A stretch of DNA of 64,000 nucleotides, taken from positions 1 to 64,000 of the IMG/VR virus record IMGVR_UViG_3300023267_000001, one strand, 5' to 3'. The notes beneath the pieces are model-generated. The model saw only the letters and a list, made by a program, of their open reading frames with translations, was not told the origin of the DNA and did no database searches. The translations under genes were made by a program, and so were the position numbers. Source of the stretch: a virus. Lineage: Duplodnaviria; Caudoviricetes. This document shows positions 18,478 through 61,073 of this stretch, piece after piece. Position 1 is the first letter of the stretch. Each line of letters starts with the position of its first letter.

Positions 18478-18479
18478 AA

Positions 18480-29428: not shown

Positions 29429-29433
29429 AAAAA

Positions 29434-30363: not shown

Positions 30364-30367
30364 AATT

Positions 30368-43253: not shown

Positions 43254-44177
43254 TTACTGCATCGGAATGTTGAACTTCTGCTGGAGCCAAGCGACATCGC
43301 GCGTGAACATGCCCTTGTTTTTTAGCTTTTCTGACTCAACCAACCGCCAGTCTTTGCGGATGTCCTCTTGGGCAAGGTTCATCTCAGAGCAGCGCGGCAT
43401 GGCGGCAATCATGCGCGTTTGCATGTCCTCTGGAAAGATGGTGTTTATGAGAAATAATTTATTATACAGCAGGGTTTGTAGGCCGTTGTGGAAGGGCAGC
43501 TTTTCGCCGTCACGGAAGCGATGCCAGACTACAAAGTTTTTAATCAGGCGGACATCCGAGCCAGTGAGGTAAAACTTGAGGGCCATCAACTGCTCCTCAA
43601 CACCCCAAGTTTTAAGGTGATTCATTCCAACGATTACTGGAAATCTTTCACGCGGCGAAACGTAGCAGGCTCCCATAGGCGACGACAACTCAACGCCGTC
43701 ATCCTGCTCTTTGGCCCAGACAGCTTCGAGAACCTGCATCCGGTTATGATTTGGGTCTTTTCCGATGAACTGTAAGTCTGCGCCGTAATAGACACCGGAC
43801 GGATTTCCGAAAGGTTTTATGGTGGGTGCAAAACCCTTGCAGACACCACATAGCAATGAGTCTGGGAACTTCTCAATTCCAGCCATTACATGCTCCAGCC
43901 AGCCGTGGGTGAACCGGCAATGACTGTCACACATAACCATGTAGTCGCCGGTTGCGATTTGCGCCCCAATGTGGCGGGACGCACCGCTGCCGATACGGTA
44001 AAGGTTGCGATGAACCTTGACGTTTAAGTGCGGTGGGAATATCAGCGTCGCCGCGCTGCAATCATCGACCGCGACAATCTCCACTTCTTCGCCAGCAGTC
44101 CCCCGAATTGACATGGCGGTGGCAACAGCTTCGACCTGTTGGTTTACGGACGGGAATACAACGGAGATTTTAATCAT
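43254..44177 (-). CDS. GT-A glycosyltransferase resembling polypeptide GalNAc-transferases (GT2/GT27-like)
   Basis: ISVVFPS, VDDCS, MCDSHCRF..GWLE (DxH), WGVEEQLMALKFYLTG...VVWHRFR. Confidence 0.8.
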   Translation of the reverse strand: MIKISVVFPSVNQQVEAVATAMSIRGTAGEEVEIVAVDDCSAATLIFPPHLNVKVHRNLYRIGSGASRHIGAQIATGDYMVMCDSHCRFTHGWLEHVMAGIEKFPDSLLCGVCKGFAPTIKPFGNPSGVYYGADLQFIGKDPNHNRMQVLEAVWAKEQDDGVELSSPMGACYVSPRERFPVIVGMNHLKTWGVEEQLMALKFYLTGSDVRLIKNFVVWHRFRDGEKLPFHNGLQTLLYNKLFLINTIFPEDMQTRMIAAMPRCSEMNLAQEDIRKDWRLVESEKLKNKGMFTRDVAWLQQKFNIPMQ

Positions 44178-44929
44178 AACTTTTTCAAAACCGCAGTCGG
44201 GCTTGCGAACGGAAAGAACTCGGTCGCCATGCACGGAAATTTCTCGTGACGTTGGAGCTTTAACCATGAATCCACCAAGCCTTTATATCCATAAAAATTC
44301 TCTTTGTAAATTAACTGCTCCTTGGTGGCGTAAGAAAAATGGTCAAACACAAGGCCCAATCTAGCTGATTCGTCAGCAGACATAAATGAACCCTTGTTAC
44401 CATTTAAGCTTGGAGGTTCGTGAACTACTCCGACCATACCCGGCCTAAATCTCCAGAAGCGCAGCCAAGAATTATTGCGGTCTGATTCAGGGTCAACGTA
44501 AATATCCTTGCCGTAGAAATAACGGCACTTGAGATACATGCGCGCAATGGACTGCTCCAAAAATATGTCATGGATTTTGCGAAGCTGTTTGGCGGTGTAA
44601 ATCTCGTCGGAGTCAATCTGACCAAGCAAGCAGGGCTGCTGAATGTTGTTTATGGCTATCTGACACATTTCGTCTTTACCACCAGACCACCACTGACGAT
44701 TAAAAACTTTAACGCGAGGGTGGTTGGAGATGGAGTTTAAAAATTCTGTTGTTCCGTCTTTGCTCAGGCGAGGTTCTTGTTTTTGACACCATTTTGTCGA
44801 GCCAGTGTTGGCAGCGGCCCCATGTGAAACATACCAAAAAAAATCCAATCCAGATTCCTCAAATATGGGAAGCTGCATTTTTATGTATGGCATGGAATCC
44901 AATGCCAGAGTGTAAAATACAACTTTCAA
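44174..44929 (-). CDS. GT2-like glycosyltransferase
   Basis: SKDGTTEFL, GQIDSDEIY (DxD), VHEPP, FDHFSY. Confidence 0.75.
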   Translation of the reverse strand: MKVVFYTLALDSMPYIKMQLPIFEESGLDFFWYVSHGAAANTGSTKWCQKQEPRLSKDGTTEFLNSISNHPRVKVFNRQWWSGGKDEMCQIAINNIQQPCLLGQIDSDEIYTAKQLRKIHDIFLEQSIARMYLKCRYFYGKDIYVDPESDRNNSWLRFWRFRPGMVGVVHEPPSLNGNKGSFMSADESARLGLVFDHFSYATKEQLIYKENFYGYKGLVDSWLKLQRHEKFPCMATEFFPFASPTAVLKKL

Positions 44930-45615
44930 ATCATTCCTCTGGATTTTAATTCAGCCATCTCGTCGTCAGTGATTTTCTGCAAATAAAAGCATTCGTCATC
45001 AAAATTAACCGGCCTCTGACGGTCGTAGCCAAATGAGAACTGTTTGAACTTGTTTGGATATGCGGCCATCAACCGAACGTATTTAGCTTCCGGCAAATTC
45101 TGATGCGTCTCCTTGCCGCACGATAGATAAAGCCTGCAAAATTCAAGGATGAAGGAATGTTTAACAAGGAACAATGATTGCGCGGCTGGCATCACTTTCA
45201 ACTTCCCAAAGATGCAACCGGCGTCACCGATTTCTTCATACATTTTGTCAAGACATGGGCCGAACCAAAGGCAATCCTGCTCTTTGAAAATAAAGTCTTT
45301 TTCCTCATTGTAGGCAATCATTGCCAAAATCAGTATGGAAGCCGACCAGCCGCATATCTCATGGTTTTTAAAAGGTGGCTCGATACCAATCAGACCATGA
45401 ACGTGACCAAGATTGCCTTTGATTGGAATCAAATTAACCATCGGCTGCGAAGGATTTAGCGTGCATCCTCCAACACCCAAAACATGGATTGCAGCAGGGT
45501 TTGAATACTGCAATGTGTTTCTCAGCCAAGTGTTAAAAAACCACTGTGCTTGGACTTCGCCAGCGGGCTTGTAGAAGAAGCCAGAGCCGATGACATACTG
45601 GTTATCGTGATTCAT
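44926..45615 (-). CDS. putative GT-A glycosyltransferase
   Basis: GWSASIL..AMIAY...FIFKEQDCLWFG resembles a DxD-region strand; cluster context; start moved to ATG 45615. Confidence 0.5.
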   Translation of the reverse strand: MNHDNQYVIGSGFFYKPAGEVQAQWFFNTWLRNTLQYSNPAAIHVLGVGGCTLNPSQPMVNLIPIKGNLGHVHGLIGIEPPFKNHEICGWSASILILAMIAYNEEKDFIFKEQDCLWFGPCLDKMYEEIGDAGCIFGKLKVMPAAQSLFLVKHSFILEFCRLYLSCGKETHQNLPEAKYVRLMAAYPNKFKQFSFGYDRQRPVNFDDECFYLQKITDDEMAELKSRGMI

Positions 45616-45619
45616 AATT

Positions 45620-46429
45620 TTATTCCCAATCAATCTCCGGCGTTTCCGGTGCTTTAACTGCACCAACCAGCCACGCAACAAACGGCATCGCCTGCGTCAT
45701 TCTGCCGGGGAAGTGAATCACACACGGGCGTGAACCGCTCTTTAAAACCACAGGCGCATCATCGCGACTCTTGGTGAAATCGTATTCGTTAAACGGCGTG
45801 TTCGAGAAATGGTTGAAAACCCGCTGCTCAAAGTCCACGCGCAATGGAAATGCGTGTTCGACGTAGGCAACCTGCCACATGTGCTGGTCGTTGCTGTATA
45901 AAGGTGGATGACTGCTGGCAATCCTGTCCTCTTTTACGAGCTTGGACAACGCCACCATGCGCGCGTAAGCCACGTTAAACGATTCACGGTTTGCCATCCA
46001 TGCGCCAGCATTGATGTAATCGAATCCAGAGGCATGTTTTCCGAATCGTGCCGCCCAAGCTGGGTCGATGTGGTGGGCGCACATCGACGAGCCTGAAATC
46101 AGCATCGGCCAGCCAATCGCGTTGAACTCGTCGCAGATGGATTGCAGCGACCTAACAAATATGCAGTCGCGCGCATCGACGTAGAGGATGAATTTCACCG
46201 ATTCCGGCAGGGAATCAATCTTGGGCTTCAACCGAGTCAGCTTCATCTCGAAACTGTTGTCGATTTCGATGGTGTTGTATTCGTAGCGCTCACCACGCAT
46301 GAAGGAAATCAGGTTGATGCCCTGCGTCTTGGCCGATTGTTGCATGAATCCAGCGGTGGATGGAACGTCTTGCTTGCGTTCGTATGCAAGAATGCTGACC
46401 ACGGAGGTATTTTCGGGGGTTGCAATCAT
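45620..46429 (-). CDS. PLOD-type (procollagen galactosyl/glucosyltransferase-like) GT domain
   Basis: ILYVDARDCIF, YINAGAWMA, NDQHMW, LRVDFEQRVF, VIHFPG. Confidence 0.7.
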   Translation of the reverse strand: MIATPENTSVVSILAYERKQDVPSTAGFMQQSAKTQGINLISFMRGERYEYNTIEIDNSFEMKLTRLKPKIDSLPESVKFILYVDARDCIFVRSLQSICDEFNAIGWPMLISGSSMCAHHIDPAWAARFGKHASGFDYINAGAWMANRESFNVAYARMVALSKLVKEDRIASSHPPLYSNDQHMWQVAYVEHAFPLRVDFEQRVFNHFSNTPFNEYDFTKSRDDAPVVLKSGSRPCVIHFPGRMTQAMPFVAWLVGAVKAPETPEIDWE

Positions 46430-47022
46430 TTTTTTGGTAGCCAACTTCCTGACCAATGGTGAATCGCGTAACTATCCTGATGCGCCAATCGTTCATGTGC
46501 TGGCGAGTCATGCAGGAACGGGTAAAAGAACTCTGTCGGCAGAATCGTAACGCCTTCTCGTGGCGCGCGCGTAGCGATATAGACTCCAAATGCCGCGTCT
46601 TGAGTCTTTAGCGCATCTTCATTCTCAATCTGCCAACGAATCCAAGGATGGCCTGCTGACGCCCCTAGGATTGCATTACAGACGCGGCCAACATCTTTCT
46701 CAAACATGATTTTGTCCTGCAATGCGCAGAACGCACTCAAGTCCAGAAGCGTGTCGAATGGTTTTAAAACCTCCACATCAGAATCGAGATACACGCCCCC
46801 AAATTTATCCAGAGCGTGAAGCCTGACAATGTTTGAAAGGCTGGCAAAATTCTGACAGTCGGACATCAGCGCGTTGTAATCCAGCCCAAGGTCGGCGATG
46901 TTGTTTTCATTCCAGTAGAAAATCTCCCAATCTTGATGATGCTTGAGCGCGGTTTTGCGACATCGTTCAGAGGGGGCATCGAGCGAACCGAAATGCACAA
47001 AATGTAGGTTTTTTGGAATCAT
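46426..47022 (-). CDS. GT32 (OCH1/DxD sugar-binding) glycosyltransferase
   Basis: IPKNLHFVHFG, SNIVRLHAL.KFGGVYLDSDVE, NAILGA..GHPWI, YAIHHWSGSW. Confidence 0.9.
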   Translation of the reverse strand: MIPKNLHFVHFGSLDAPSERCRKTALKHHQDWEIFYWNENNIADLGLDYNALMSDCQNFASLSNIVRLHALDKFGGVYLDSDVEVLKPFDTLLDLSAFCALQDKIMFEKDVGRVCNAILGASAGHPWIRWQIENEDALKTQDAAFGVYIATRAPREGVTILPTEFFYPFLHDSPAHERLAHQDSYAIHHWSGSWLPKK

Positions 47023-47591
47023 TAGATTTTACGCAGGCAGAACGACGGGAACTCCTCTTCGCTGACGGCCACGAGTTTCCAGTCAGTTTCTTTGCAGAAT
47101 TGGGCGACTGCTTTTTGGACTCCCCAACCGTATTTAACAGCCGTCGGATGGTCATCGCAGAAGTCGTGGCCCATTATTGACGCCGAGGGGGACATAACTC
47201 TTGACCACGCCCGAAGGTCGGCTAGAACGGAATCGTAATCGTGCGCGGCATCTAAAAAAACACCGTCAAACGTCACCCTGTTTTCAAAAGCCATTTCAGC
47301 GGCCCCAAGCGAATCCATTCTCATTATGGCATATCTGCCGCCATGCCTGTGGCCTTGGATATTTTCCAGTGTTTCAAGATAGTTCGCCTCGTGGTCAACT
47401 GACGGGTCGGCAAGCGGGTCATTGTAATCATCGCGCTTTCTCCAGCTATCTACGAGCCAGACATGATTCAAGTTTGGCAGGCTTAAAATCTCGTTTGAGA
47501 AATATCCGCGCCAAACTCCGACTTCTGCGATGCTGGAGCCTTTGGGCAAACTCGCAATCATTTCAATCCGCGTCTTGAATTTTTGAATCAT
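47022..47591 (-). CDS. class I SAM methyltransferase (Methyltransf_24-like)
   Basis: AEVGVWRGYFS, FDGVFLDAAHDY..V..DL, GHDF, GV.KAV. Confidence 0.9.
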   Translation of the reverse strand: MIQKFKTRIEMIASLPKGSSIAEVGVWRGYFSNEILSLPNLNHVWLVDSWRKRDDYNDPLADPSVDHEANYLETLENIQGHRHGGRYAIMRMDSLGAAEMAFENRVTFDGVFLDAAHDYDSVLADLRAWSRVMSPSASIMGHDFCDDHPTAVKYGWGVQKAVAQFCKETDWKLVAVSEEEFPSFCLRKI

Positions 47592-48124
47592 AACTTTTGA
47601 AACGCGATGAAGCTGTCGGCAGAGTCGAATTTGGGCATTAGGTTTCTAATTCCATCGGCCTGCAATTCCTTAATCGCTTTCGTCCCACCTTCAAACATAG
47701 GGTTTCCATTGTCGTGAAAGCTGAAAATACCACCATTAACCAAAGCTGGAAAGAATTTATCAAACACGGCAATCGTGTCATCGTAGGTGTGAGAATGGTC
47801 AACAAAAATAAAACTCAGCCCCGTCTCCTGTTTCAACTCCGTCTTGTTGAAATCCTCGTTCAGAATATCAACCTGTCCAGCGTGTCCGTGTCGCACGAGA
47901 TTGGCGAACAGCGTATCGCACTGACCTTGCTCGATGCAGATAAGCCGCTTGTCAGACCGCAGGACGGAGCAGATTACCAATGCGCTTAAACCGTTCAGCG
48001 AACCGATTTCAAGCGCGTGGCCGTCAAGGTGCGCCGTGGCTAGAACGCAGCGTTGGATGGCCTGACGTTCACCCTCGGTTAAATAACCAAGGACTTCTGG
48101 AAATTTGCCGGAGGAGTTTTTCAT
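47588..48124 (-). CDS. class I SAM methyltransferase (Methyltransf_24-like)
   Basis: LEIGSLNGLS, FIFVDHSHTY, L.NGG..SFHD. Confidence 0.9.
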   Translation of the reverse strand: MKNSSGKFPEVLGYLTEGERQAIQRCVLATAHLDGHALEIGSLNGLSALVICSVLRSDKRLICIEQGQCDTLFANLVRHGHAGQVDILNEDFNKTELKQETGLSFIFVDHSHTYDDTIAVFDKFFPALVNGGIFSFHDNGNPMFEGGTKAIKELQADGIRNLMPKFDSADSFIAFQKL

Positions 48125-48504
48125 ACAATAAACCTCCAGACTGCCCAGATGGTTACGATATGCCAGACGTTATCGACCACAATCATGCTCCACGGCGCAC
48201 ATGGGCCGGTGCGAAATTTGTGTTGTCCGATTAAATCCATCCACCAAGAAATGATGTTGGTGCGGTCTTGGATAAAGTGAGTCCAGAAAAGAATTTGCCA
48301 AGTCCATGCCGCGTTGCCAGTCCATAATGGAGTCAACCAATTATCCCATCCAGCAAACAGGCAAACAGTGATTGACCATATCAATGCATGAACACAACAA
48401 TGAAATGAGCTTTTCTTTTTGTTAAGGGCTTGCCAATCATTTTGAAGCAGGTAGTCGCCGACAAGGTGGCCGATGATGGCGAGCGTTAGGGTGTTTTGAT
48501 TCAT
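48121..48504 (-). CDS. DUF3307-like membrane protein
   Basis: HLVGDYLLQ..WQA..K, H...H, HF.QD, DN.WH. Confidence 0.8.
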   Translation of the reverse strand: MNQNTLTLAIIGHLVGDYLLQNDWQALNKKKSSFHCCVHALIWSITVCLFAGWDNWLTPLWTGNAAWTWQILFWTHFIQDRTNIISWWMDLIGQHKFRTGPCAPWSMIVVDNVWHIVTIWAVWRFIV

Positions 48505-48953
48505 TTTGTCAGGCGGAATCTGGCAGATTCCAGTTCATCTTTGGCTTCTCCGATTACGCGCCAATGGCCATAAATGGCGGGTCGTTTTCCATCACCATCA
48601 ATGTCGCGCGCGATGTCTCGGAATCCGGCCAAGGAAAGAAACGAGGCGAGAGATTGTTCTGTCCAAAAACTTAAATGCCCATGACCCAATAAAATATCTC
48701 TGGCATGGTCTGGCTCCAGTCGGTCAACAACAGGGCAGGAAATATGCAGCAATCCTCCAGATTTAAGGATTCTCCTTGCCTCAATAAGAAACCTGAAAAA
48801 GTCTTGGGGCGCACAGTGTTCCCCGCAGTGTTCAAGAAGAACCTCTTGCACTGATTCAGATTCGTATGGCAGCGGCTTTGTTATGTCAACCTCAGCGTCG
48901 TGGTTATTCCAGCCTTCAAGCTGATTGCCTCCAGAGCCGAATTGAATTTTCAT
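48501..48953 (-). CDS. class I SAM methyltransferase (type 11-like)
   Basis: IQFGSGGNQLEGWNNHD, LPY.SESV..V..EH..EH, RILKSGGLL.I..P. Confidence 0.85.
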   Translation of the reverse strand: MKIQFGSGGNQLEGWNNHDAEVDITKPLPYESESVQEVLLEHCGEHCAPQDFFRFLIEARRILKSGGLLHISCPVVDRLEPDHARDILLGHGHLSFWTEQSLASFLSLAGFRDIARDIDGDGKRPAIYGHWRVIGEAKDELESARFRLTK

Positions 48954-48986
48954 AATTCAGAGAGTGCCAAAAGTGGCGTTGTCTTG

Positions 48987-49694
48987 TCAACCAACTTTAT
49001 GAAAAATCTCCGCGTATGGAAAAGTTAAAACCCAAGGCTTCCAGTCTGGAACCTCGTTTCGCATTTTCATAATCGCCTCAACCATGCGCGTATTTTCAGG
49101 AGATTGACGCGGAAGATTACAGCGCGCGTCGGGAACCACACCGGCAAAACGGATGATGTTCGCGGCCAGATTCCGCTTCATAAATCCGGCAGGCTGGATG
49201 CGCTTTTCAAACTCGCCGTCGTTTCCGTAAGTGCCGACGAATCTTTCATCGTGACCACCGATTTCCCAGAACGCTTTTTTGGTCAGGAACCAAGAATTTT
49301 TGTGCGGAGGATTCGGTTTCATGTCGGGGTATTGCATTCGGCTGAAAGTATAAACCGCCTTTGGGTCGAAGTTTCCATAAACCAGATACTCCATTGTTTC
49401 CACGGGAACAACATGGTCGATGTCCGTCATTAAAAGCCAGTCTCCAGAAGCCTTGGCAGCAGCGAGGTTTCGGCAGAATTGCCAGTTCCAAAGCGCGTCG
49501 ATTCCGGTTCTGAAAAAACGCGATTTCAGATTTAGACTGGGGACGACAAGCGGATGCTTCGGCGAACAATCGTCGGTCACAATGAGTTCAAGCTTTGAGC
49601 GGATGTCCTCTGGATAGCCGATTATGACCTTTAGCTGATGCTCGAGCATCAGTGGATTATCGTAAAACGGAAAAGTTAAAGTGAGCCGGTTCAT
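48987..49694 (-). CDS. GT2 glycosyltransferase
   Basis: LT.PFYDNP.ML, IVTDDCSP, CRNLAA, LMTDIDH, GGHDERF.G.YG.D.EF; start moved to 49694. Confidence 0.85.
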   Translation of the reverse strand: MNRLTLTFPFYDNPLMLEHQLKVIIGYPEDIRSKLELIVTDDCSPKHPLVVPSLNLKSRFFRTGIDALWNWQFCRNLAAAKASGDWLLMTDIDHVVPVETMEYLVYGNFDPKAVYTFSRMQYPDMKPNPPHKNSWFLTKKAFWEIGGHDERFVGTYGNDGEFEKRIQPAGFMKRNLAANIIRFAGVVPDARCNLPRQSPENTRMVEAIMKMRNEVPDWKPWVLTFPYAEIFHKVG

Positions 49695-50668
49695 AAAAAG
49701 GGAATGGATTCCAGAATGAAACCGCAAGCCCCTCTGTGTCCTCCACCGCCATGTTTTTTAGCTATGGCAGAAAGGTCTATGCCGGTGTTATGTCGCGCAT
49801 GATAGAGTGAAAAAATGTAGCGCGCGCCATCGTAATAAAAACCCATTAAAGCATCGTGGCCTGTCTTTGGCACATCTTTTGAGCTAAACGTCAAGCTGTT
49901 GAACCTGATTGAATTTAGGCATAGAAATTTCAATCCTTCCCATTCAACTAAAAAGCTTCGCTCCATTGCGCCCCTGTCAATACTGCGCTGGTATTCTTGC
50001 AGCAATGCGCCATCGTCAAGCATGGCCGCAACAGTGCTTGGGATGGAACCCCCGTCCTTCGGAAAGGATAGCAAGTCTCCTTCTTTGACTTGATTATATT
50101 GAAGCATACACCGCCAAGTTTCAGCGTTTAGCTCACGACTTCGCAGCCCAAACTGGAATGTTTCGGCATTGTGGTCGCGTTTGTCCCAGATGTCGTATTC
50201 ACCAGCGAGACGCACGGCGTATGGCTCCAAAACATCTCGGTTTATGAATTGCTCTTTTGTTGGCAGTGTCAGAAAAAATTGTTCATTGCGAGCGTTCTGA
50301 GCATTGTGCTGGTCAATGGAAAAGTATTGCCAAGCCAAGCGGCACGCCGCCACCCCGTCGATACGATAGCCCAAGATGTCAGTGGGATGCGTTTCTATGC
50401 TAGTTTTGTGGTGGTCAATCCAGATAACTCGATTAAGCAAAAATCCTGTTCCGTAAACTTTGTTTTTTGAAAAATCATCAAATCCAAAAACACGGTCAAC
50501 TGGCAAGTCGAGGACATAAACCATGCCTGATTCTGGAAATTTTAGGGGCTTGTCTTTGTAATCCCACCCAATGTATTCAACATCGCTTGTGCCAAGAAAA
50601 TGCTTTGAGACTTCGCGGCAGAAGATTCCATCGAAGTCAGCGGAGTGGTAAATGACAGTTGTTTTCAT
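49691..50668 (-). CDS. DHH/DHHA1 family phosphoesterase
   Basis: YHSADFDG, VLDL, WIDHH, EYDIW, GGGGHRGACGF. Confidence 0.9.
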   Translation of the reverse strand: MKTTVIYHSADFDGIFCREVSKHFLGTSDVEYIGWDYKDKPLKFPESGMVYVLDLPVDRVFGFDDFSKNKVYGTGFLLNRVIWIDHHKTSIETHPTDILGYRIDGVAACRLAWQYFSIDQHNAQNARNEQFFLTLPTKEQFINRDVLEPYAVRLAGEYDIWDKRDHNAETFQFGLRSRELNAETWRCMLQYNQVKEGDLLSFPKDGGSIPSTVAAMLDDGALLQEYQRSIDRGAMERSFLVEWEGLKFLCLNSIRFNSLTFSSKDVPKTGHDALMGFYYDGARYIFSLYHARHNTGIDLSAIAKKHGGGGHRGACGFILESIPFL

Positions 50669-50671
50669 AAT

Positions 50672-53014
50672 TTAAATGCAGTTGTTTTCTGTAAAGTGTA
50701 AATCAGGCAGGTTTTTAGCAGCCCAATCCTTGAAAATCTTGCCGTTGTGCAAATTCGCTGGCGATGTGTGGACATACCCGCTCTTGGCCCAAGCTGACTC
50801 GTGAGAGATGTGAAAAATATAACCCTTGGGACACTCCGCTGGGAAAATATGTTTCAAGAAACTGGCCCTGTCTGACTTTATTCCGTGGTAAAGCCGGATT
50901 AGCGCAGTCATCATAACGTCCCAGTTTGCGGCGGCTAGAATTGGCTCCCCCAACTCATCCCAATGTTTCACCAGCCATGACTTTTTGAAAACAAAAAGGT
51001 CGCGACCAAAGTGGGGTTGCGCGTTTTTTGCCATCTCGACCGGATTCAATGCGCGGGTTGCGACTGCATGTTTAATCTCAACCCTTTGGCTCGAACAGGC
51101 ATCATAAACCGACCCGTAAAAACGAATCATTTCAGGTAAGTCGAGGTGTAGGATATTGTCGTCATTCGTAAAAAAAATTAAATCGTTGTCGTCAGCCTGC
51201 TCCATCGCCATCTTGAGCAAATCTTTCAAATATGGCAATGCGCGCGGCTCACCAATCTCCCGTGCGTCACGCGGATATTTCCACATGTGAACCGGCAACA
51301 CTTTTCCCGTGGCGTAGATGGCATCCCAAGAGTCGTTGCAAGCCCTCTTCCTGTTCGCGGTGTCGATGTTGGTTTCCTCGTGGCGTTCGGTGATGTGGAA
51401 CAGGCGCACGGATGGGGCGGGCTTGATTGGTGTTTTCCCAATCGGGTTTGCCGCGCCATCCCCAAGACTTTTGTGCCACTTATCCGCTGCAATTATTTTA
51501 CCAATGCCTTCAAAAACTCGCTGCTTCGTGGCTTCCGCGTAGGTAATTCGCTCAAAGCAGTTGCAACGCAACATGCTGCCAGCCCAAGGCTGGGGATTCA
51601 CCAACGCCACCACGGGCACGCTAGACGCAGCGGCAAGGTGTAATAGTGCGGTGTCGATACTCACAAGTCCGATGGCGTTATCCATCAGCCCAATGATGTC
51701 ATAAATCTTTTCAGCGCGAACCTTGTCTAAATCAACCACGTTTAAAGATTCGCCGAACGCCTTCTTGATTTCTTCAAGCAGGGCAACTCCACCTGAAAAC
51801 GGCGAACTGACTCCAGACGTGACTTGAACCAATAGCATTGGTTTGTCTGTGGATAACTTGGTGACAAGCTGCGCCTCGCGGTGGGCATCTCGCCGGTCAA
51901 AAACCAAATCCAGCGACGGGTCTTTGAAGCGGTGTTCAAATCCGAGCATTTTCCACGACTGGACATTATAGCTCGCGCATGTTTTCTCTGGCGTATAATT
52001 CTTTCCGTAGATTTGAGCCTGCAACACTATGGGGAACTTTGGACGAGCAATATCCATCGCGGTCAATACGCGGCTGTAATCAATGTCCACGATTTCAGGA
52101 ATGACGTAGCTGACGCCTTCAAGGACGGATGCGAACTCACGGGACACCATCAGGTGAGGCTTGGCGTAGTTTTCAGCGATGTGCTTGCAAATTGGAAGGA
52201 TGTTCACGATGTCTCCAAAGCGGCCCAACTCGACGATGCACACCGGCCATTTATGATTCTTCTTCTGGTTATACGCATCCATAAAATCCTGCATCATCTT
52301 CTTCGGGTCGTGTTCCAGAAACGGCTTCAAAATAATGTCGCCAGTTTTCTCCGAACCAACGCGAATCCTGCGGCGCAAATCTTCGGCAATGCGGTCATGC
52401 GCGGTTTGAAATCCTTTTTTGTCCTCGCCCATGCCGGAGACGTGGTGCGAACCGTTTCCCCAAGAATAGAAGAATGAGATTTCATTATCCACCAGATTGA
52501 AAACGCGGCCAGATAGTTGCGATGTCAGCCTGCCGACAAAATTCCTGTCCTCGCCAACGGTGAACTTATCGGAATATTTTCCAACTTTTTCCCACGCTTT
52601 TTTCGTGAATGCGAAACACGGCATCTGACCACCGACAATCTTGGATATTTTGAACTGCTCGCAAAAAAATTGCTTGTCGAGATGGACCCAGTTATGACCA
52701 CCTTCAAATCCTGCGGCAAAGTTGCGCAGGTGGTTTTCGCCAAAAATATCGTCATCGTCATAAGTCACGATATGCGTTCCATCCGCGTGCTCAACAGCGA
52801 TATTGCGCGCGGCTCCAAGCGAGATTGGCCGCTCTTTCAGATTGATTATTTTGACGTTCTGAAAGTCGCCGTAAAGCGTTTGCTGTGGGCAGGTATTCAG
52901 GATTAAAAGCTGCGACTTGCCATCGTATTTCTGGTTTAGGAAACAGGCGATGGCTTGTTCGAGGAATTTAACTCTCCCAAAAGTGACGCAGGCTGCGGTT
53001 ATGAATGGATTCAT
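50672..53014 (-). CDS. three-domain glycosyltransferase (GT2 + GT9-like GT-B + GT-A-like)
   Basis: CVTFGR..LEQAI..F..Q, YDDDD, GEDRNF; then LGRFGDIVNILP and VSIDTALLHLAAA; then FFTNDD. Confidence 0.8.
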   Translation of the reverse strand: MNPFITAACVTFGRVKFLEQAIACFLNQKYDGKSQLLILNTCPQQTLYGDFQNVKIINLKERPISLGAARNIAVEHADGTHIVTYDDDDIFGENHLRNFAAGFEGGHNWVHLDKQFFCEQFKISKIVGGQMPCFAFTKKAWEKVGKYSDKFTVGEDRNFVGRLTSQLSGRVFNLVDNEISFFYSWGNGSHHVSGMGEDKKGFQTAHDRIAEDLRRRIRVGSEKTGDIILKPFLEHDPKKMMQDFMDAYNQKKNHKWPVCIVELGRFGDIVNILPICKHIAENYAKPHLMVSREFASVLEGVSYVIPEIVDIDYSRVLTAMDIARPKFPIVLQAQIYGKNYTPEKTCASYNVQSWKMLGFEHRFKDPSLDLVFDRRDAHREAQLVTKLSTDKPMLLVQVTSGVSSPFSGGVALLEEIKKAFGESLNVVDLDKVRAEKIYDIIGLMDNAIGLVSIDTALLHLAAASSVPVVALVNPQPWAGSMLRCNCFERITYAEATKQRVFEGIGKIIAADKWHKSLGDGAANPIGKTPIKPAPSVRLFHITERHEETNIDTANRKRACNDSWDAIYATGKVLPVHMWKYPRDAREIGEPRALPYLKDLLKMAMEQADDNDLIFFTNDDNILHLDLPEMIRFYGSVYDACSSQRVEIKHAVATRALNPVEMAKNAQPHFGRDLFVFKKSWLVKHWDELGEPILAAANWDVMMTALIRLYHGIKSDRASFLKHIFPAECPKGYIFHISHESAWAKSGYVHTSPANLHNGKIFKDWAAKNLPDLHFTENNCI

Positions 53015-53067
53015 GCTCGTCCACAGACCATGCCACATTTGGCGGTGTCTAGTCCAGATAATTTATC

Positions 53068-56000
53068 TCAAGAGGACGAGATATTCAGCGACCAAGAACC
53101 AATGGCCCCCGTGTCAGACGAAGAAACATCTTGAACCCACAGAAGCCAGACACCATTCGGATTTTTCCCGATGAATGCAGCCAATGTGAGATTCGGAGTT
53201 CCAGACGGACATGGCAGCGGGAAGGCTGAAAACACTCCGAGTTGCGACGGTTTGAAAGTTCCGCTGACCATTGTGGAGCCAGATATTGAGCTACCAGACG
53301 CGTCGTCCAGAACCAGATTGATTCCAGTCACAGGCACGTTGCCGCCCACGTTGCGTAACACGTTTACCAGTGTTCCATCGGGAGCCATCAAAATTATCGA
53401 AACGTCGTTAGGTCGCTGGTGCTGATAGCCATTGATTGCCAGCGTGACCTTCGTAATCAGGCCAGTTAGCCCACTGACGCAGGCAACGCTCGGATAAGGC
53501 GTTGCCTTGCCAATGTCGTTAATCGTGATTCCATTCGCGCTGATGTCAACGCAGGTGCAACTAATCGCGGCGTCTGCCGCAGCTTTGGCCGCTGCTAATG
53601 CTTGCGTCTGGGCGTCCAGCAGGCTCACCAAGCTCGTATAGTTCGCTGTCTTAGTCACAGACTGGCCGGTTTTACCAATGGGGCAATTCGCGGTGTAGGA
53701 TTCCGTCGCGGTGTAGGCGTTGATGCACTGAATCGCAGCTTGGGCGGCGGCAAGCGCGGAGTTGTAAGCCTTGGTGTCAGCGTCGGCCTGAGAGATTAAA
53801 CTGGTTGCCGTGGCTGATTTGCACAGTTCTGGCGTGGCTGCGAATGCCAGTCCACCAAAGCTGTAAGCTGTCAGCGTGGTCGTCGACTTGTCATAAACCA
53901 GTTTGAAATACTTGTAGTTAATCGGGTCAAACGTTCCACAGGACGCGATTTGAATCTGTGACGGCCTTGTGATGTCGCCGTTCACATCTGCTGCGAATCC
54001 GCGATTGGATGTGAAGTAAATCTTCGTCCAGTTGACGGCATCATTTGAACCATAGAGCGAAAGCGCAAACTGGTTCGGAGTCGCAATCATCGTGAACGTG
54101 AAGCAGATGATGTTCAGAATAGGTGGCGTGGTGAAATCAAAGTAGGTGCCATCAGAAACCTCAACTTTCACATTCGGGCCAACAGCATCGTTGTCAGCCG
54201 TGACTTGAGTTCCACCACTTGGGCATGTCGCACAAGCCGTCTGGCTGCTGCTGTAGTTCGTTGGCGGCGTGTAGCCACCGGCCTCAATACTTGGCAGCGG
54301 GCTTGGGTCAGGCAACTGGACGCCGGGGGGCGTGTCGAGGCAACCAGAGCCATAGCAGTTGTAACCAGCGGCATAACCATATGTTGCCGGACTTCCGCCG
54401 AACATCTGGAATCCAGAGATAAAGACGTTGAATCCACTGGTCGCCAGTGAAACATTCAGGCGGTAATACGAGAATGCCTGCGTGTTGTTGATTTGAAACC
54501 GCGTCGGCGGCTGGATGCAAGTTGCGTCAGGCCAAGGATAATTCGTCTGGGTGTCCAGTGTAACAAAATTAACGCCGTCATTTGAGCCTTGGAACGTCCA
54601 AGTTTTAGGCCCAAGACTGCAACTGGTCGGGCTTGCGTCATAATCCACGCCCACAAACTCATAGGCGGTGACAAGCTGCGGGGTTTCAAATTTATACTGT
54701 AACCATGCAGGCATCACCGCGCTTTCCCAATAGCTTTGGTGTGGGTCAAACGGGCCAGCGTTAGGAATGCCGCAGAAGGCTTTCCAAGGCTCCATTGAAA
54801 GATTTGGGTCACCATCATGCGAGGGTACATGCGAGCTTGCAGAGGCCACTCCAGACGGCGTGGTGTCGCTCGTCATCGGCGGTATCAGCGCAACCACTCC
54901 GGTTCCGATTGGCACATAGGCTGAACCAATGCCGCAGGCAGGCGGGATGTAGGTTTCGTTCTCGGTTGAAAAGTCGTCAAACAGCAGAGTTTCAATGTTG
55001 GTGGCGTCATCGAATGAAACCGAGTCGAGCAACAATCCTGCGGCGGGAGCAGCAGCGGGAGTTGCGGTCTGCTGAAACCGAATCCAGACATTGACGTTAT
55101 CTGGTGCGACGAATGAGAACGACTGCGGTGTGAATCCCTGCTGATAGTTGTTAATCGTGAATGACTGATTCAGATAATCTACTTGTGAGCCAGTGGTGTT
55201 CTGCGTGGGAACAATCGCGCAGGCTGAAATCGTGTTGAGCAGAATCGCCGCCTGCATGTCGGCCATGTTCATGTGGTCAACATAGACTGGCGCGGTGTTC
55301 GCAATGGTGGCAATCAGGTAGTATGGGCTGTCCGGCGACTGGCCGGTGGTGCGATAGATGTTGATTGCCGTCGCAGATGGATTCGCCGTGGTCTGGACTG
55401 AAATGGTGGCGGTGTCGCCGGTCGGTGTCGCCGATGAAACAGGGCTTCCAATGGTTTCACCATACGCATTGGTGTAGGTGTAAACGTATTTATACGTGGG
55501 TGTGTCGCCCAACGGCGCGCCGGATTCATTCACGGTCAGCGCGGGAGCGATTGATGGATTGGTGAGGCCATCGTTGTTGCGGCCAAAAATCCGCATATTC
55601 ACCGTGTTTGGAGAACCATTGTATCTTTGGTTTCCAGCCAGATTCAAAGACAGGCGATAGTTGTGGCCGGACTGCAACGCAAATGAGTTTTTGGACTCGA
55701 ACTGACCATTGTGCGGCGAGGAGGAGCCAGCGAGGTCAACGTAGAGGCTGTTGTTTGGCAGGAAATCCAATAATCCATTACCAATCAAATCCACGTTTCC
55801 GCCGTAAACATTCCAGTTTTTGAAAGCGCAGTAATCAAGCTGGCCTGTGGCGACGTAGGTATCACCGGCAGGGGTGCAGTTGCCCGCGCAGAGATAGCCC
55901 TTCATGCCGTTGAAAATCTCAATGGCTTCGGCGGCAACAGCGTTGTAGGAGTTTAAGAAGAATCCACCGGATGAGAAAGCCTCCAACAGCGAGAATGGAG

Positions 56001-56835
56001 TTCCGGCAGCGCGAACGCCCAAGCAGATGACGACGCCGCCAGAGGACTTGAACACACTCAATGCGTTCAAGGTATCAGTGGCATCCGTGGCGATATTGGA
56101 GGTGTCCTCGCCGTCGCTGATGATGACCAAAACTTTCTGGTCGAGTCCGGCTGCGTCCAATGAGGCGATGGCCGCATTGACGGCAACTTTGTAGCCGGTC
56201 AACTGCGCTGCGCTGGCGATTGAGTCCACCGCTGTAACCACTGAATTAACATTGGAGGTGATGGCGGCAAGAGGGGTGTATGCCGAATCATCGAACATTG
56301 ACAGGCCAACCACATCCTTGGTCGCGTTGACCTGACTGATAAACCGTCGGGCCGCAGCTTTGGCAAAGTCAATGCGTTGCGGATAGGCACCGCTAAACGC
56401 CTGCGTCATGGACTTGCTGATGTCCACCAAAACCATGAAGCCGACCTTTACTTGGTCACAGCAGTTGACGCCACCCAGCACGGAAAGGCTCGCGTTGGCT
56501 GTCATAATGCCATAGGTGGCGGTAATCGTGGTGACACCATCATCTAAAGCCGTCGCATTGCCGCTGGAAGCCCCCACCACGGCGACATTGGAGTTGGAAG
56601 TGGTGAACACCGCGCTCGATGTCACATCGCGCTCACGGCCATTGCTGACGACGTAGGCCTTGAACTGGATGCTGCCAAGCAAGCAAGACAGCGCGGACTC
56701 CGGCTTGATGATAAGCTGGGAGGAAATCCCACAGATGCCGGGATTCAGCAGGGCAAAGGCTGGGTCATCACAGCGTGCGTCAACTGGCGGCGGCGTATTC
56801 GCGCAATTCGCACTGGTTATTCTTCCAAAGTTCAT
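53068..56835 (-). CDS. multi-domain tail/receptor-binding protein (Ig-like, vWA, sugar-binding, discoidin x2, DUF5977-like, P-domain)
   Basis: FTTSNSNVA.V..GNATA..G.TTITATY; VDISKSM..SDGED (MIDAS); PKTWTFQGSNDG..F..LD; H.RPND..I.L.APDG..NG.W.L.V.D. Confidence 0.75.
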   Translation of the reverse strand: MNFGRITSANCANTPPPVDARCDDPAFALLNPGICGISSQLIIKPESALSCLLGSIQFKAYVVSNGRERDVTSSAVFTTSNSNVAVVGASSGNATALDDGVTTITATYGIMTANASLSVLGGVNCCDQVKVGFMVLVDISKSMTQAFSGAYPQRIDFAKAAARRFISQVNATKDVVGLSMFDDSAYTPLAAITSNVNSVVTAVDSIASAAQLTGYKVAVNAAIASLDAAGLDQKVLVIISDGEDTSNIATDATDTLNALSVFKSSGGVVICLGVRAAGTPFSLLEAFSSGGFFLNSYNAVAAEAIEIFNGMKGYLCAGNCTPAGDTYVATGQLDYCAFKNWNVYGGNVDLIGNGLLDFLPNNSLYVDLAGSSSPHNGQFESKNSFALQSGHNYRLSLNLAGNQRYNGSPNTVNMRIFGRNNDGLTNPSIAPALTVNESGAPLGDTPTYKYVYTYTNAYGETIGSPVSSATPTGDTATISVQTTANPSATAINIYRTTGQSPDSPYYLIATIANTAPVYVDHMNMADMQAAILLNTISACAIVPTQNTTGSQVDYLNQSFTINNYQQGFTPQSFSFVAPDNVNVWIRFQQTATPAAAPAAGLLLDSVSFDDATNIETLLFDDFSTENETYIPPACGIGSAYVPIGTGVVALIPPMTSDTTPSGVASASSHVPSHDGDPNLSMEPWKAFCGIPNAGPFDPHQSYWESAVMPAWLQYKFETPQLVTAYEFVGVDYDASPTSCSLGPKTWTFQGSNDGVNFVTLDTQTNYPWPDATCIQPPTRFQINNTQAFSYYRLNVSLATSGFNVFISGFQMFGGSPATYGYAAGYNCYGSGCLDTPPGVQLPDPSPLPSIEAGGYTPPTNYSSSQTACATCPSGGTQVTADNDAVGPNVKVEVSDGTYFDFTTPPILNIICFTFTMIATPNQFALSLYGSNDAVNWTKIYFTSNRGFAADVNGDITRPSQIQIASCGTFDPINYKYFKLVYDKSTTTLTAYSFGGLAFAATPELCKSATATSLISQADADTKAYNSALAAAQAAIQCINAYTATESYTANCPIGKTGQSVTKTANYTSLVSLLDAQTQALAAAKAAADAAISCTCVDISANGITINDIGKATPYPSVACVSGLTGLITKVTLAINGYQHQRPNDVSIILMAPDGTLVNVLRNVGGNVPVTGINLVLDDASGSSISGSTMVSGTFKPSQLGVFSAFPLPCPSGTPNLTLAAFIGKNPNGVWLLWVQDVSSSDTGAIGSWSLNISSS

Positions 56836-58832
56836 ACGTTGATTGTATATGGGCCACAGAAGCCCGTGCGCGCGCGATTCTGGGCCGTGCCTTGGGCGAG
56901 CGAATTAGCGTAGTTGAGGGCTTGATTATTGGCATCGCTCACGGATGTAAGCGAGGTGACGCTTCCCGCCGCGACATTGACCGTCACCGTGGACAGGCAT
57001 TGATTTCCAAGCGAGCCAAAAACATACGAGCGGATTGCGATTTGCGGCGTGTTCTCAAAGAATATGGTCTGGCCGTTGCACACGAGTTCGGTTTGAGCCT
57101 GCGTCTTGGCCGAGTTGAGAGCCTTTGAATTGGCATCGGACTGCGACAAATCAGAGCTAAACGTGTGTTGCGACACGGTTTTAGTGACCGGCGTTCCAGT
57201 TTGACCGGACGGGCAGCTTGCGGTGTAAGATTGTTCGGCGTTCCAGAACGTGCAGACAAGCAGGGCTTGGGCTTGGGCCTGCGCAGATGCCAAAGCCTGC
57301 GCGTCGGCGTCAGCCTGCGAGATTACAGAGGTGAACTGACCGGCAGGGATGTTGACCGTTTGCGGGATTCCATCCGGCGTCGGAGAGCCTTGGCAGACCG
57401 CCGTGAAGCTCTGTGGCGTGTTGAGATAGGTTGTCTGGCCACCGGAGCAATTCAACTGCGCCAAGGCTTGCTGCTGCGCCTGCTGTAATGCGCGGGCGTC
57501 CGCGTCTGATTGCGATGTCGAACTGGCCACCAGTCCGTCTTGAATCGTGATGGTGACAGAATTTCCAGTCTGACCAGCAGGACAATTAGCCGTGAATGTC
57601 TGCTTCGAGTTGTAATACAGCGCGCCGGAAGCAGCCGGATTGGACTGACGGGCGAAGCTGGGTTCGTTGTTGTCGCGGATTCGCGTTTCCTCGCGGCATT
57701 CGTGAATCATGGTCGCCAGAGTGTCGGCGTATTCCGCCTGCGCGCCTGCCGCTGATTCAGGGTCTTTGTCGAAATATTGAAAATGGTCGCGGCGAACAAA
57801 GGCGCGGATGGCCTTAGCTAGATTCGGGTCATCATCAATCGGGTCGGCATCAGCCCATGTGCGCTTGATGCCATCCCACTTCACAATAACTGTTTCGGTG
57901 CTTTGGATGAATGGAGCGATGTAAATCTTGCCGCGTTCCGTTGCCCACAATCCATATTGTGAGCGAAACCTCTTGTCTGTGTCAGCCTGTGGATAATGAT
58001 AACCCAATGGCAAAATTGGCAGTCCCGCAGGCACGTTGGCATCAGTCGGAGTCGGCGGCTTTAAATCAAAGAAGCTCCACCAGTTGAGGCACCCCCTGAT
58101 TTCAAGCGAGCGCTTCCAATACTTTTGGACGTAAGCGGGTTCCGTCTGGCGATACTGGATTTCTGAACACCAATCATCGGTTTGCGTCGTGACATCCAGC
58201 GGATTGAACTGACGCACGTTGACGCCGATGGTTGCACCACCTGATTCCACTTCGGGAATGTTGAAGGGCGTGACAGCAACAAAAACATTGGTGCCAATCA
58301 GCGTGTTGATTTGCTGAATCTGGCTGGTTTCACAATCGGAAAGATAGACGTTGCGCGAGAAGGTTTTAATCTTGGACTCGGCGTCAGTATAGGTGACATC
58401 CACCTTGAAATACTGTTTGACCGGAGTGCCGCATTTTGAACCTTGGCCGGTGATTTCGACCACGTATAAATCTGAACTCGGAATCGCGCCGATTGAAACA
58501 GGCAGAATGGCGGCGTCGAGAATGTCAGCGGCGATTGCGGTTGTCAGGACGATTGTTCCAGTGGGAGGTGGCGCGGGAGTCGCATTGATTACGGAAACTT
58601 TTTTGATGTGCCCGCGAGGTGCGTCGAAAGTCGTTATGCCGCAGTTGTAGAACGTGGCGCACTGGGGGAAGATGGAGGTGTTGTCTTGGCGCGCGCAGTC
58701 CACGTAGGATTGAATGTCGATGATGGCGGCGAGAAACGCGGCGTCGTGAGCCAACACAAGCGAAGATGCTTCGCCAGTTGGAAAAATAATCTTCCGCGCC
58801 TCGCTTTTAAGATTTCCCCACGTGGTCGCCAT
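56832..58832 (-). CDS. putative head-tail adaptor-like structural protein with four DUF5977-like repeats
   Basis: N-terminus TWGNLKSEAR..I; C-terminal repeats N..Q.FTA.C..G..G..VT.T....F.S..SQ.DA...A. Confidence 0.6.
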   Translation of the reverse strand: MATTWGNLKSEARKIIFPTGEASSLVLAHDAAFLAAIIDIQSYVDCARQDNTSIFPQCATFYNCGITTFDAPRGHIKKVSVINATPAPPPTGTIVLTTAIAADILDAAILPVSIGAIPSSDLYVVEITGQGSKCGTPVKQYFKVDVTYTDAESKIKTFSRNVYLSDCETSQIQQINTLIGTNVFVAVTPFNIPEVESGGATIGVNVRQFNPLDVTTQTDDWCSEIQYRQTEPAYVQKYWKRSLEIRGCLNWWSFFDLKPPTPTDANVPAGLPILPLGYHYPQADTDKRFRSQYGLWATERGKIYIAPFIQSTETVIVKWDGIKRTWADADPIDDDPNLAKAIRAFVRRDHFQYFDKDPESAAGAQAEYADTLATMIHECREETRIRDNNEPSFARQSNPAASGALYYNSKQTFTANCPAGQTGNSVTITIQDGLVASSTSQSDADARALQQAQQQALAQLNCSGGQTTYLNTPQSFTAVCQGSPTPDGIPQTVNIPAGQFTSVISQADADAQALASAQAQAQALLVCTFWNAEQSYTASCPSGQTGTPVTKTVSQHTFSSDLSQSDANSKALNSAKTQAQTELVCNGQTIFFENTPQIAIRSYVFGSLGNQCLSTVTVNVAAGSVTSLTSVSDANNQALNYANSLAQGTAQNRARTGFCGPYTINV

Positions 58833-59354: not shown

Positions 59355-61073
59355 TTAGTGGTAGGTCGTGGTGGTCGTGGTTCCAGAACCGCCATACTGA
59401 GCGCCATTGTCCACTATCGAGATTTCATCCGAAGTCCAGTTTTCCAAAATTAGTGAACTTTTTGGACACTCAACAACCACCGTGTAAGTCATCGAGTTCA
59501 ACGTCTGTTGGCGCGTCGGAACTTTCATCACACACGCGAAATCAGGATTCGCAGCGGCAAGCGTTTTCAAGTCGCCCGTGTTCTGCACCACGCGATTGGT
59601 GGCGATGATGCCCGGATAGATACCGGCGAAGTCCAGCACCCACAACACGCGGGCGATGTCGCCCTGTTGCTTCTGGTTCGCAGCCGAAACGTAATCGTCA
59701 AAGAAATAATGCGTGACGATGTTCATCTTGATATTCGGCCATTGCAGCGGATAGCTGCGGTAGGCGAAACCGAATTCCGCTTCCTTCGTCTGCAACGCAG
59801 TCGGTGTGTTGTATTCACGCACCGGATTGTTGATGTCCAGCGTCATGCGCAGAGTGTTGTTCGTCTTGCCCTGATAATACAGAATCATGGCTTGGTTGAT
59901 GGCCTCGGCGGTCACGGAATCCGTGAAGATGTCGATGACACCGAATTTGCCGTTGTTTCCCTGACGGACGCGCATGATGTCATACAGCGCGCGGAACAGC
60001 GCGGGCAGGTTCAATCCACCGCCCTGCAAGTCAACCACGCGGTCGCATTGGGCCAACTGCTCGTAGATGCCAACCACGTTGGCGCGACGGCCTTGGCAGG
60101 TTCCACCATCGACACCGAGGCCGAACGCGGAGCCATCGTAGGCGTCGATTTCTTCCAAGCTGTTATATGCGGCCAACGTCTGATTCGGCAGCGGCTTGGA
60201 GAAAAACATGTTGTGGACGACCTGTTTCTGGAAGTCGCGGCCCAACTGTTTGTTGCGCTGGATGTCGTCGAGGTCGCCGAACTCCGCGTAGAGCGGGTTG
60301 TTTTCGAGGAGCAGCTTGCGCCACTTGTCGTAGTTCGAGGATTTGCACAACGAATTGCGCGTGGTTTCAAACCAGAACTCGGTGTTTTTCCAGTTGATGT
60401 AGGCTGGGCCTTCCGCGCAGAACTTCTCGTAGTCGTTCACGTTGTTCGTGCCGACCGTCATAATGCCGTTCACGGGGCTGGTCAATTTGTCAGCAGGCAG
60501 GAACGAGCCGGTGTTCTGCGAGGAGAGCGTCAGGTCGCCGGTGCCGTCGCCGTTATCCACGGCGGAAACCACCGACCATGCGGTAACAGACTTGGTGCCC
60601 GCGTTGGTCTTGCTGTCGATATAAACACGACGGCCAACTGGGAACAGGCGAACATCCATCGGGATGTTCGCGCTGGAAACAATTTCAACCACCCAGTTTG
60701 AGCCGGATGAGCGGCCATTGCCGACCAGCCAGTATTCGTTGTTGATGGGGCTGTATTGGCGGGCGAGGACGAAAGGCATGATTTCGATGGTGCCGCCACC
60801 GGAATTGCGGGTTTGCACACGCTTCTGCATGTTTACCTTGTTCGCCATGAAAAAGTCATACATGCCGTTCTGCTGCGCTTCGCACATCTTGATTTCCATG
60901 TCGTGATGGAGCAGTGCGTTCATCACCTTGTAATTGCCACCAGTCTGGTAGGTGGCGGTGAGGTCGCCGGTTTGCAGCGGGACGGCTTGGCAAAGAGTTA
61001 CCGTGCCGCATTGCTTGATGTTGGTCGAAATGGACGGAGCGCATTTCGAGAAGGACGTTGCATTAAGTGCCAT
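59355..61073 (-). CDS. major capsid protein (probable HK97 fold with insertion domain), C-terminal Thr6 tail
   Basis: 572 aa; follows the scaffold-like gene and precedes a strong terminator; terminal TYTVVVECPKSSLILEN strand; ends GGSGTTTTTTYH. Confidence 0.7.
   Translation of the reverse strand: MALNATSFSKCAPSISTNIKQCGTVTLCQAVPLQTGDLTATYQTGGNYKVMNALLHHDMEIKMCEAQQNGMYDFFMANKVNMQKRVQTRNSGGGTIEIMPFVLARQYSPINNEYWLVGNGRSSGSNWVVEIVSSANIPMDVRLFPVGRRVYIDSKTNAGTKSVTAWSVVSAVDNGDGTGDLTLSSQNTGSFLPADKLTSPVNGIMTVGTNNVNDYEKFCAEGPAYINWKNTEFWFETTRNSLCKSSNYDKWRKLLLENNPLYAEFGDLDDIQRNKQLGRDFQKQVVHNMFFSKPLPNQTLAAYNSLEEIDAYDGSAFGLGVDGGTCQGRRANVVGIYEQLAQCDRVVDLQGGGLNLPALFRALYDIMRVRQGNNGKFGVIDIFTDSVTAEAINQAMILYYQGKTNNTLRMTLDINNPVREYNTPTALQTKEAEFGFAYRSYPLQWPNIKMNIVTHYFFDDYVSAANQKQQGDIARVLWVLDFAGIYPGIIATNRVVQNTGDLKTLAAANPDFACVMKVPTRQQTLNSMTYTVVVECPKSSLILENWTSDEISIVDNGAQYGGSGTTTTTTYH

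Follow-up and report, generated by a model that had tools for sequence, protein, structure and literature searches.

A threonine-tailed capsid protein and a GT27-like glycosyltransferase in an uncultured tailed phage: a putative cytoplasmic O-glycosylation system

The stretch of DNA considered here, referred to below as the window, comprises bases 1-64000 of the 76,042-bp virus record IMGVR_UViG_3300023267_000001, which comes from an uncultured tailed phage. Our subject is the C-terminal run of threonines on its major capsid protein and the proposed relation of this tail, as an acceptor of O-linked sugars, to a glycosyltransferase (GT) that resembles the polypeptide GalNAc-transferases (ppGalNAc-Ts; CAZy family GT27) and is encoded in a cassette on the same strand (Table 1). 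The cassette (43254-53038) lies between the genes for the 607-amino-acid (aa) structural protein and the 1255-aa tail protein, runs entirely on the capsid strand, and is compact, in that most of its adjacent genes overlap by 1-4 nucleotides (nt) or are separated by short gaps. Two of its three S-adenosylmethionine (SAM) methyltransferases belong to Methyltransf_24 and one to Methyltransf_11; two 251-aa proteins without a known family also fall within it, and no sugar-nucleotide synthesis enzyme was recognised among its genes. The DUF3307 protein of the cassette may be membrane-embedded.

Table 1. Coordinates of the features of the window treated in the text
Feature	Position	Strand	Details
607-aa virion structural protein	41389-43212	-	phrog_3287
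GT27-like (ppGalNAc-T-like) GT-A glycosyltransferase, catalytic domain only; proposed priming enzyme	43254..44177	-	307 aa
Variable part of the cassette	44174..50668	-	further GTs (PLOD-GT-like, DXD sugar-binding GT, GT2), three SAM methyltransferases, DUF3307 protein, DHH-like phosphoesterase
788-aa protein with N-terminal GT2 domain and weak GT9-like segment	50672..53038	-	PF00535 1.2e-8 (residues 18-115), PF01075 3.7e-4
1255-aa tail protein	53068-56835	-	vWA, Big_2, F5/8 type C (galactose-binding-like) and proprotein-convertase P domains; weak DUF5977
666-aa protein downstream of the capsid gene	56832-58832	-	four DUF5977 copies
13-bp hairpin followed by a U-rich stretch, straight after the capsid stop codon	59305..59336	-	-26.7 kcal/mol, z-score -4.9, 0/200 shuffles as stable
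Major capsid protein gene, 572 aa, HK97 fold	59355..61073 including stop codon	-	open reading frame (ORF) and AF2 model
C-terminal tail GGSGTTTTTTYH, proposed O-glycan acceptor	59358..59393	-	six Thr codons at 59364-59381

An earlier note on this DNA, made from its letters alone, had taken the 572-aa protein for the major capsid protein. Pfam, PHROGs and NCBIfam hold no family for it, and a tblastn search of 50,697 deposited phage genomes gave no match; its metagenomic homologs number more than 277, many of them on contigs of ~75-83 kb. An AlphaFold (AF2) model built from 46 of these homologs reached a predicted local distance difference test score (pLDDT) of 69, with a better-defined core (approximately residues 100-560) and with a disordered N-arm and a disordered stretch at residues 563-572 (pLDDT <50 for the latter). 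Compared with known structures, the model matched the capsid of Vibrio phage VP1 (5.8e-14), that of phicrAss001 (4e-12 to 1e-10) and also that of P1, and among the matches listed at E<=6e-4 the hits are capsid or encapsulin shell entries. The gene order terminase, 798-aa protein, 446-aa protein, capsid is kept among relatives and constitutes a head module; its large terminase lies just past the end of the window (genome positions 65732-67261; phrog_2 match, 4.2e-13), and no portal protein in the module had a family match of its own. On the basis of the modelled HK97 fold and the position in the head module, we accept the 572-aa protein as the major capsid protein, in keeping with the earlier assignment. 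The hairpin 3' of its gene is likely an intrinsic terminator, and a strong terminator at that place fits the gene of the most abundant virion protein, which is only suggestive.

The capsid ORF ends ...AQYGGSGTTTTTTYH and is then closed by TAA. The tail is laid out as a conserved Tyr after the last core strand, a short Gly/Ser linker, the six Thr and a final Tyr-His, and the six codons read ACC ACG ACC ACC ACG ACC, so that a re-reading of the sequence agrees with the earlier description of a mixed ACC/ACG run following a flexible linker. A six-frame scan of stop-to-stop frames of >=80 aa found no other Thr run of >=4 in the window. The short-form capsid homologs listed number 107 (51-79% identity); T>=4 falls within the last 25 residues in 87 of them and a mixed S/T tract occurs in 18, whereby an S/T-rich tail is kept in 105 of the 107; many of these tails carry Pro after the Thr run. 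It is absent only in P0106, whose contig stops 5.7 kb past the capsid gene and is too short to be scored for the GT, and in P0014, on a 6-kb contig. More distant capsid clades (36-48% identity) end in ..YPYSDLY-like or ..DGSYYV-like sequences, without a tract. Across loci the tracts comprise 129 Thr and 15 Ser codons (Ser ~10%), and the Thr codons are ACG (58), ACC (53), ACT (9) and ACA (9); such synonymous variation points to selection on the amino acids and not on the DNA. A slippery or repeat DNA element behind the Thr run was considered and rejected, the codons being mixed and synonymously variable.

A second form of the capsid protein bears on where the tail is placed and on what it may do. 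In 13 of 120 capsid homologs (P0027, P0030, P0047 and others) the chain is 60-85 residues longer and ends in a DUF5977 domain, and in 12 of these 13 the Thr tract connects that domain, as a linker, with the capsid core. Because homologs carry such C-terminal domain fusions, the C terminus is presumably exposed on the exterior of the capsid; the HK97-fold capsid of phage T7, which displays its C terminus, also suggests external exposure. The same fusions are what an alternative account would draw upon, according to which the Thr tail is an unmodified spacer or linker, perhaps left over from C-terminal decoration domains (DUF5977, for example) or offering them a place to land, and the cassette targets other proteins, e.g., the DUF5977 fibre-like proteins or the 1255-aa tail protein. 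We consider this unlikely: a mere core-DUF5977 linker would fit the 12 long homologs, but the strong preference for Thr over Ser is not predicted by it, and the GT27-like enzyme would be left without a mucin-like acceptor, since the window has no other Thr run. Further evidence on both sides of this account comes from individual relatives and from other phage lineages (see below).

Eukaryotic ppGalNAc-Ts act on clustered Thr/Ser residues of mucin-like stretches (PMC3417536), and the earlier note had read two of their motifs in the 307-aa enzyme of the cassette. Both are present: in the alignment with a solved ppGalNAc-T, DSHC..GWLE falls on DAHCE..GWLE and WGVEE...VWHRFR on WGGEN...VGHVFR, and the resemblance extends to profile and fold. 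The enzyme matches PF00535 (7.8e-13), and in a phmmer search of the PDB every match is a ppGalNAc-T (best, 1.1e-9). A profile of 14 homologs recovered ppGalNAc-Ts as its top 14 matches (1.4e-24 to 2.6e-20), over nearly the full length and including ppGalNAc-T10, T3, T4, T2, T9, T1 and T12; the best match outside GT27 is chondroitin synthase (1.9e-10). The structural model of the enzyme has a pLDDT of 92, and all 30 Foldseek matches listed for it are ppGalNAc-Ts (TMq 0.66-0.76; identity, 17-20%). Invariant in the 14 enzyme sequences are D38, D39, the D84-S-H86 triplet (D84-x-H86), R88, W93, W191, G192 and H219, with E195 nearly so, and these residues align with those that bind uridine diphosphate (UDP) and Mn2+ in GT27 (the DxH motif, the downstream His and WG.E). 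The 307-aa chain has no lectin domain, only the catalytic domain of the 470-630-aa chains being matched, and no obvious N-terminal membrane anchor, its first residues already forming strand 1 of the fold. For this protein, none of the curated bacterial families came near the family cut-off, and tblastn with it against the deposited phage genomes mentioned above gave no match. In the ESM Atlas it falls among tailed-phage and bacterial clusters that carry PF00535, often with PF02709, and an exhaustive profile search placed at least 774 clusters (50% identity) in the GT27-like family at E<=1e-30. By phmmer, profile and fold comparisons, the product is GT27-like; that it would transfer GalNAc from UDP-GalNAc to Ser/Thr of a polypeptide is suggested by its genomic association with poly-Thr genes (see below).

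If tail and enzyme act together, they should be gained and lost together, and the earlier note had proposed checking whether capsid homologs from phages without the cassette lack the tail. This check was carried out among the capsid relatives, and the proposal withstood it. When 15 whole related contigs (7 tail-bearing and 8 tail-less) were scored for every gene of the genome (~120), only the genes for the GT27-like enzyme and the 788-aa GT2 protein were found in 7/7 tail-bearing and 0/8 tail-less contigs, the remaining cassette genes being patchy among the relatives. Over all contigs of known state, the tail and the GT27-like gene coincide in 28/28, with 18 having both and 10 neither, and the 10 contigs without them are 88-100% complete. 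A search of 47 further, fragmentary contigs yielded five GT matches only, all in tail-bearing contigs. The tail, therefore, is not independent of the cassette but tracks the GT27-like gene. A tree of the capsid core, from which the tail was excluded, requires two changes in both traits. The tail-less capsid L023 (contig G011) groups in it with the main tail-bearing set (support, 95) and apart from the tail-bearing L030-L038 clade, and under the approximately unbiased (AU) test monophyly of the tail-bearing capsids is rejected (p 0.032). The nested contig G011 has neither the tail nor the GT27-like gene nor the 788-aa gene, nor any PF00535 match, and its syntenic slot measures ~2.7 kb, against the 10-kb cassette of its relatives. 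Its capsid ends ...ATYLPQ where those of the relatives end ...TYPGTLTTTTTTTAPQ, which looks like the relatives' tail with the tract cleanly deleted, alongside the loss of the GT genes. Such a joint loss of tract and GTs is not predicted if the tail is an unmodified spacer.

Several of the same observations weigh against the view that the capsid tail is glycosylated through the GT27-like enzyme. Within the capsid family there are only two independent contrasts, and although both are concordant (2/2; sign test p 0.5), shared ancestry therefore explains much of the 28/28. Tail and 788-aa GT2 protein go together just as closely as tail and GT27-like gene do, which leaves more than one candidate for the priming enzyme. 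In contig G009 the GT is present while the capsid tail has only T3, and it is the adjacent DUF5977 protein that has T9 plus STTTTSTT, so that the capsid need not be the sole or the main acceptor; acceptors, it appears, can move. The placement of a long tract in a neighboring DUF5977 protein instead of the capsid is also what an unmodified linker would allow. The exposure of the capsid C terminus is itself deduced, and the modification, its site, the sugar, the order of the enzymes and the function are all things that we infer from sequence, fold, conservation, co-occurrence and adjacency.

Two further explanations arise from these patterns. The tail might be glycosylated but primed by the 788-aa GT2 protein or another GT of the cassette, with the GT27-like enzyme acting later on a glycopeptide or glycan. 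The equally perfect tracking of the tail by the 788-aa protein is just what this would entail, and the GT2 domain of that protein adjoins the GT27-like gene in five loci of other contigs (L154, L156, L163, L169 and L171). We nevertheless regard it as rather improbable, given that the nearest characterised relatives of the GT27-like enzyme are all peptide-priming and that some phages pair this enzyme with poly-Thr proteins without a detectable 788-aa homolog (see below). Alternatively, the cassette could modify a target outside the virion (the host envelope, a polysaccharide or DNA), in which case shared ancestry would be the only reason why it occurs together with the tail. The small number of contrasts within the capsid family would sit well with such a target, as would the preference of GT2 enzymes for polysaccharide and the possible membrane location of the DUF3307 protein; but the cassette sits on the same strand amid late structural genes, the GT27-like enzyme shows no obvious N-terminal membrane anchor, and in phages that do not have this capsid family GT27-like genes are repeatedly found immediately beside genes for poly-Thr proteins. 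We judge a nonvirion target to be very improbable.

These other phages were found by a scan of IMG/VR, which gave 51 loci with GT27-like genes; of the contigs concerned, 16 are without this capsid family. Nine of these 16 (L154, L156, L158, L159, L164, L165, L167, L168 and L171) were rejected as independent lineages, as they share the 607-aa structural gene of the window. One of the remaining lineages is the complete 204-kb genome G079, in which a gene for a 428-aa FN3-like protein with T22, T8 and T48 tracts ends 52 nt before the GT gene. N-terminally this protein (L203:1135-2421) is FN3-like and C-terminally it has a globular domain, with ~78 Thr, and the GT27-like gene beside it (L203, 2473 onward) encodes an N-terminal Cys-rich extension (CVDCG). 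In L163 the frame of a 640-aa protein with T8 and then S and T47 ends 13 nt before the GT gene; next come a protein homologous to the GT2 domain of the 788-aa protein and an RCC1-like protein with T7. In the complete 45.5-kb genome G083 an ORF with T29 ends at the start codon of the GT gene. This ORF and a ~175-aa ORF that ends just upstream of it are in different frames; the former may be either a short gene in its own right or an extension of the latter's product by frameshifting, as in T7 10A/10B; the genome (L221/L222) has a 29-nt terminal repeat. Other arrangements are a 519-aa protein with eight Thr tracts encoded 2 kb upstream of the GT gene (L169), a 193-aa protein that ends in T6(PT)6 and is encoded just upstream of it (L182), and a 162-aa protein that has a terminal S/T tail of 17 residues and is encoded 5.8 kb away (L175). 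The S/T tracts of L164, L167 and L168 could not be clearly assigned to substrate genes, as they lie in or beside the GT2 homolog.

Tracts of T>=6 occur at 5/10 such loci, compared with 1/30 20-kb windows of GT-less genomes (Fisher p 0.002). The force of this comparison is reduced by the control set, which is small and has members related to one another, and loci with distant GT27-like homologs (22-25% identity) are mostly without tracts, none being found near L174, L178, L179 and L184. The tracts in these lineages are also interdomain linkers of fibre-like proteins, which again would suit an unmodified spacer. Still, what in our view speaks most strongly for a functional link between this enzyme family and poly-Thr tracts is their adjacency in phages that do not have the capsid family. 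In G079 and G083, moreover, a poly-Thr gene adjoins a GT27-like gene and the flanks retrieved contain nothing recognisable as a 788-aa homolog, and the GT27-like enzyme is therefore the common denominator.

Taken together, we think it probable that the capsid tail is an O-glycan acceptor that is primed in the cytoplasm by the GT27-like enzyme, with extension by the conserved GT2 protein and by variable enzymes; the glycosylation interpretation of the earlier note is, as a whole, partly supported. Its two premises, an HK97-fold capsid protein and a GT27-like enzyme, hold, whereas GalNAc as the sugar, modification of every capsid subunit, and extension and methylation by the other cassette enzymes are its conjectural parts. 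Late in infection, the capsid protein and the soluble, lectin-less GT27-like enzyme, whose genes share a strand and the late structural region, would be made together in the host cytoplasm. With its metal site of DxH plus His, the enzyme would transfer the first sugar from a UDP-sugar to hydroxyl groups of the tail's Thr residues; elongation and methylation of the glycan would then fall to the 788-aa GT2 protein and to those GTs and methyltransferases that vary between lineages. Each capsid would in this way carry several hundred glycosylated tails on its exterior, and shielding, colloidal stability and adhesion are candidate roles for such a glycan coat. More broadly, and only tentatively, the pairing of a GT27-like enzyme with a poly-Thr tract may represent a widespread form of cytoplasmic mucin-type O-glycosylation in phages, directed at capsids here and at fibre-like or decoration proteins elsewhere, including the 204-kb jumbo phage.

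Several other features of the genome were recorded. DUF5977 is probably a surface decoration or adhesion module, and the domain architecture of the 1255-aa tail protein is adhesin-like. Three very large ORFs (33632-40045 on the plus strand, 2137 aa; 30338-32509 on the plus strand, 723 aa; and 27377-29608 on the minus strand, 743 aa) have no PHROG match, and the 2137-aa protein has counterparts in three relatives at 34-39% identity only. A replication/recombination module on the plus strand (16046-21553) encodes RNA ligase-like, Sak4-like or phrog_1366, and exonuclease VIII-like proteins. No tRNA genes were found. In a scan of genome contigs only six contigs of metagenome-assembled genomes (MAGs) matched, and since they belong to mixed phyla no host can be named.

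The proposed system has likenesses to several known ones. With the eukaryotic ppGalNAc-Ts the window enzyme shares the GT-A domain, the DxH motif with its downstream His, the WG.E (Gal/GalNAc-T) motif and, as proposed, the logic of a clustered-Thr acceptor, in which Pro after the run in many homolog tails is a further likeness; unlike them, it has no ricin-type lectin domain and no obvious anchor, and there is no secretory pathway, so that it would act in the bacterial cytoplasm. Cytoplasmic O-glycosylation by a multi-GT cassette (GtfA/GtfB, GalT1) is a feature of the serine-rich repeat adhesins of bacteria, where a GT-B enzyme pair primes and the targets are Ser-rich and secreted. The likeness, drawn here at the level of a general description, lies in the combination of Ser/Thr tracts with a multi-GT cassette, and the GalT1 structure (5hea) is a weak profile match of the GT27-like enzyme (6.2e-8).

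The closest precedent in phages is offered by mycobacteriophages: according to two accounts that cite Freeman 2023, Che8, Corndog and Myrna attach sugars to the proteins of their capsid and tail tube with their own GTs, and for Cluster O phages, Corndog among them, the GT genes are placed downstream of a gene for an O-methyltransferase (PMC12363180, PMC11600133). As far as these accounts go, that system thus comprises a phage GT operon and an O-methyltransferase with the major capsid protein as a target, and the window cassette likewise encodes several GT domains and three methyltransferases. Che8 gp108 combines GT2 with Methyltransf_24, the latter a family shared with two of the window methyltransferases. 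The differences are equally plain. The essential GT of Che8, gp110, is GT25-like (PF01755), whereas the window enzyme is GT27-like and, with no tblastn match among the 50,697 deposited phage genomes, is not a homolog of gp110 or of Corndog gp38; the Che8 capsid and tail-tube proteins have short Ser/Thr-containing ends (..NKTGS and ..YSDGS) without the poly-Thr run of the window; the window has no second virion protein with a Thr run of >=4, in contrast to the capsid and tail-tube targets of Che8; and the phage lineage and the capsid family are not the same. As the family of the priming enzyme and the design of the acceptor differ from the mycobacteriophage case, the kind of system is known but this version is distinct. 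The chloroviruses and giant viruses provide a more remote parallel, in that their own GTs decorate their own structural proteins without the host secretory pathway (PMC4691112); they differ in their eukaryotic hosts, their capsid fold and the type of linkage. In the literature searched we found no report of GT27-like or ppGalNAc-T enzymes, of poly-Thr acceptors or of Thr-rich proteins with GTs in phages.

Most of what has been documented so far on virion glycosylation by phage-encoded enzymes comes from mycobacteriophages, in which it changes recognition by antibodies; the case described here suggests that uncultured phages have a second version, distinct in mechanism. Its acceptor is simple and portable, being a run of 5-9 Thr at the capsid C terminus. 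If the proposal is true, it would provide a minimal tag-plus-enzyme pair for the cytoplasmic O-glycosylation of proteins, and of phage capsids, in bacteria, and glycan coats on phage particles would be commoner than thought. The evolutionary relation of the phage and bacterial GT-A enzymes to GT27 would likewise become directly testable, which bears on the origin of GT27. To our knowledge, the combination of a ppGalNAc-T with mucin-domain logic is thought to be typical of animals and some protists; were the system as widespread as we tentatively suggest, it would be the first counterpart of that logic in viruses of prokaryotes.

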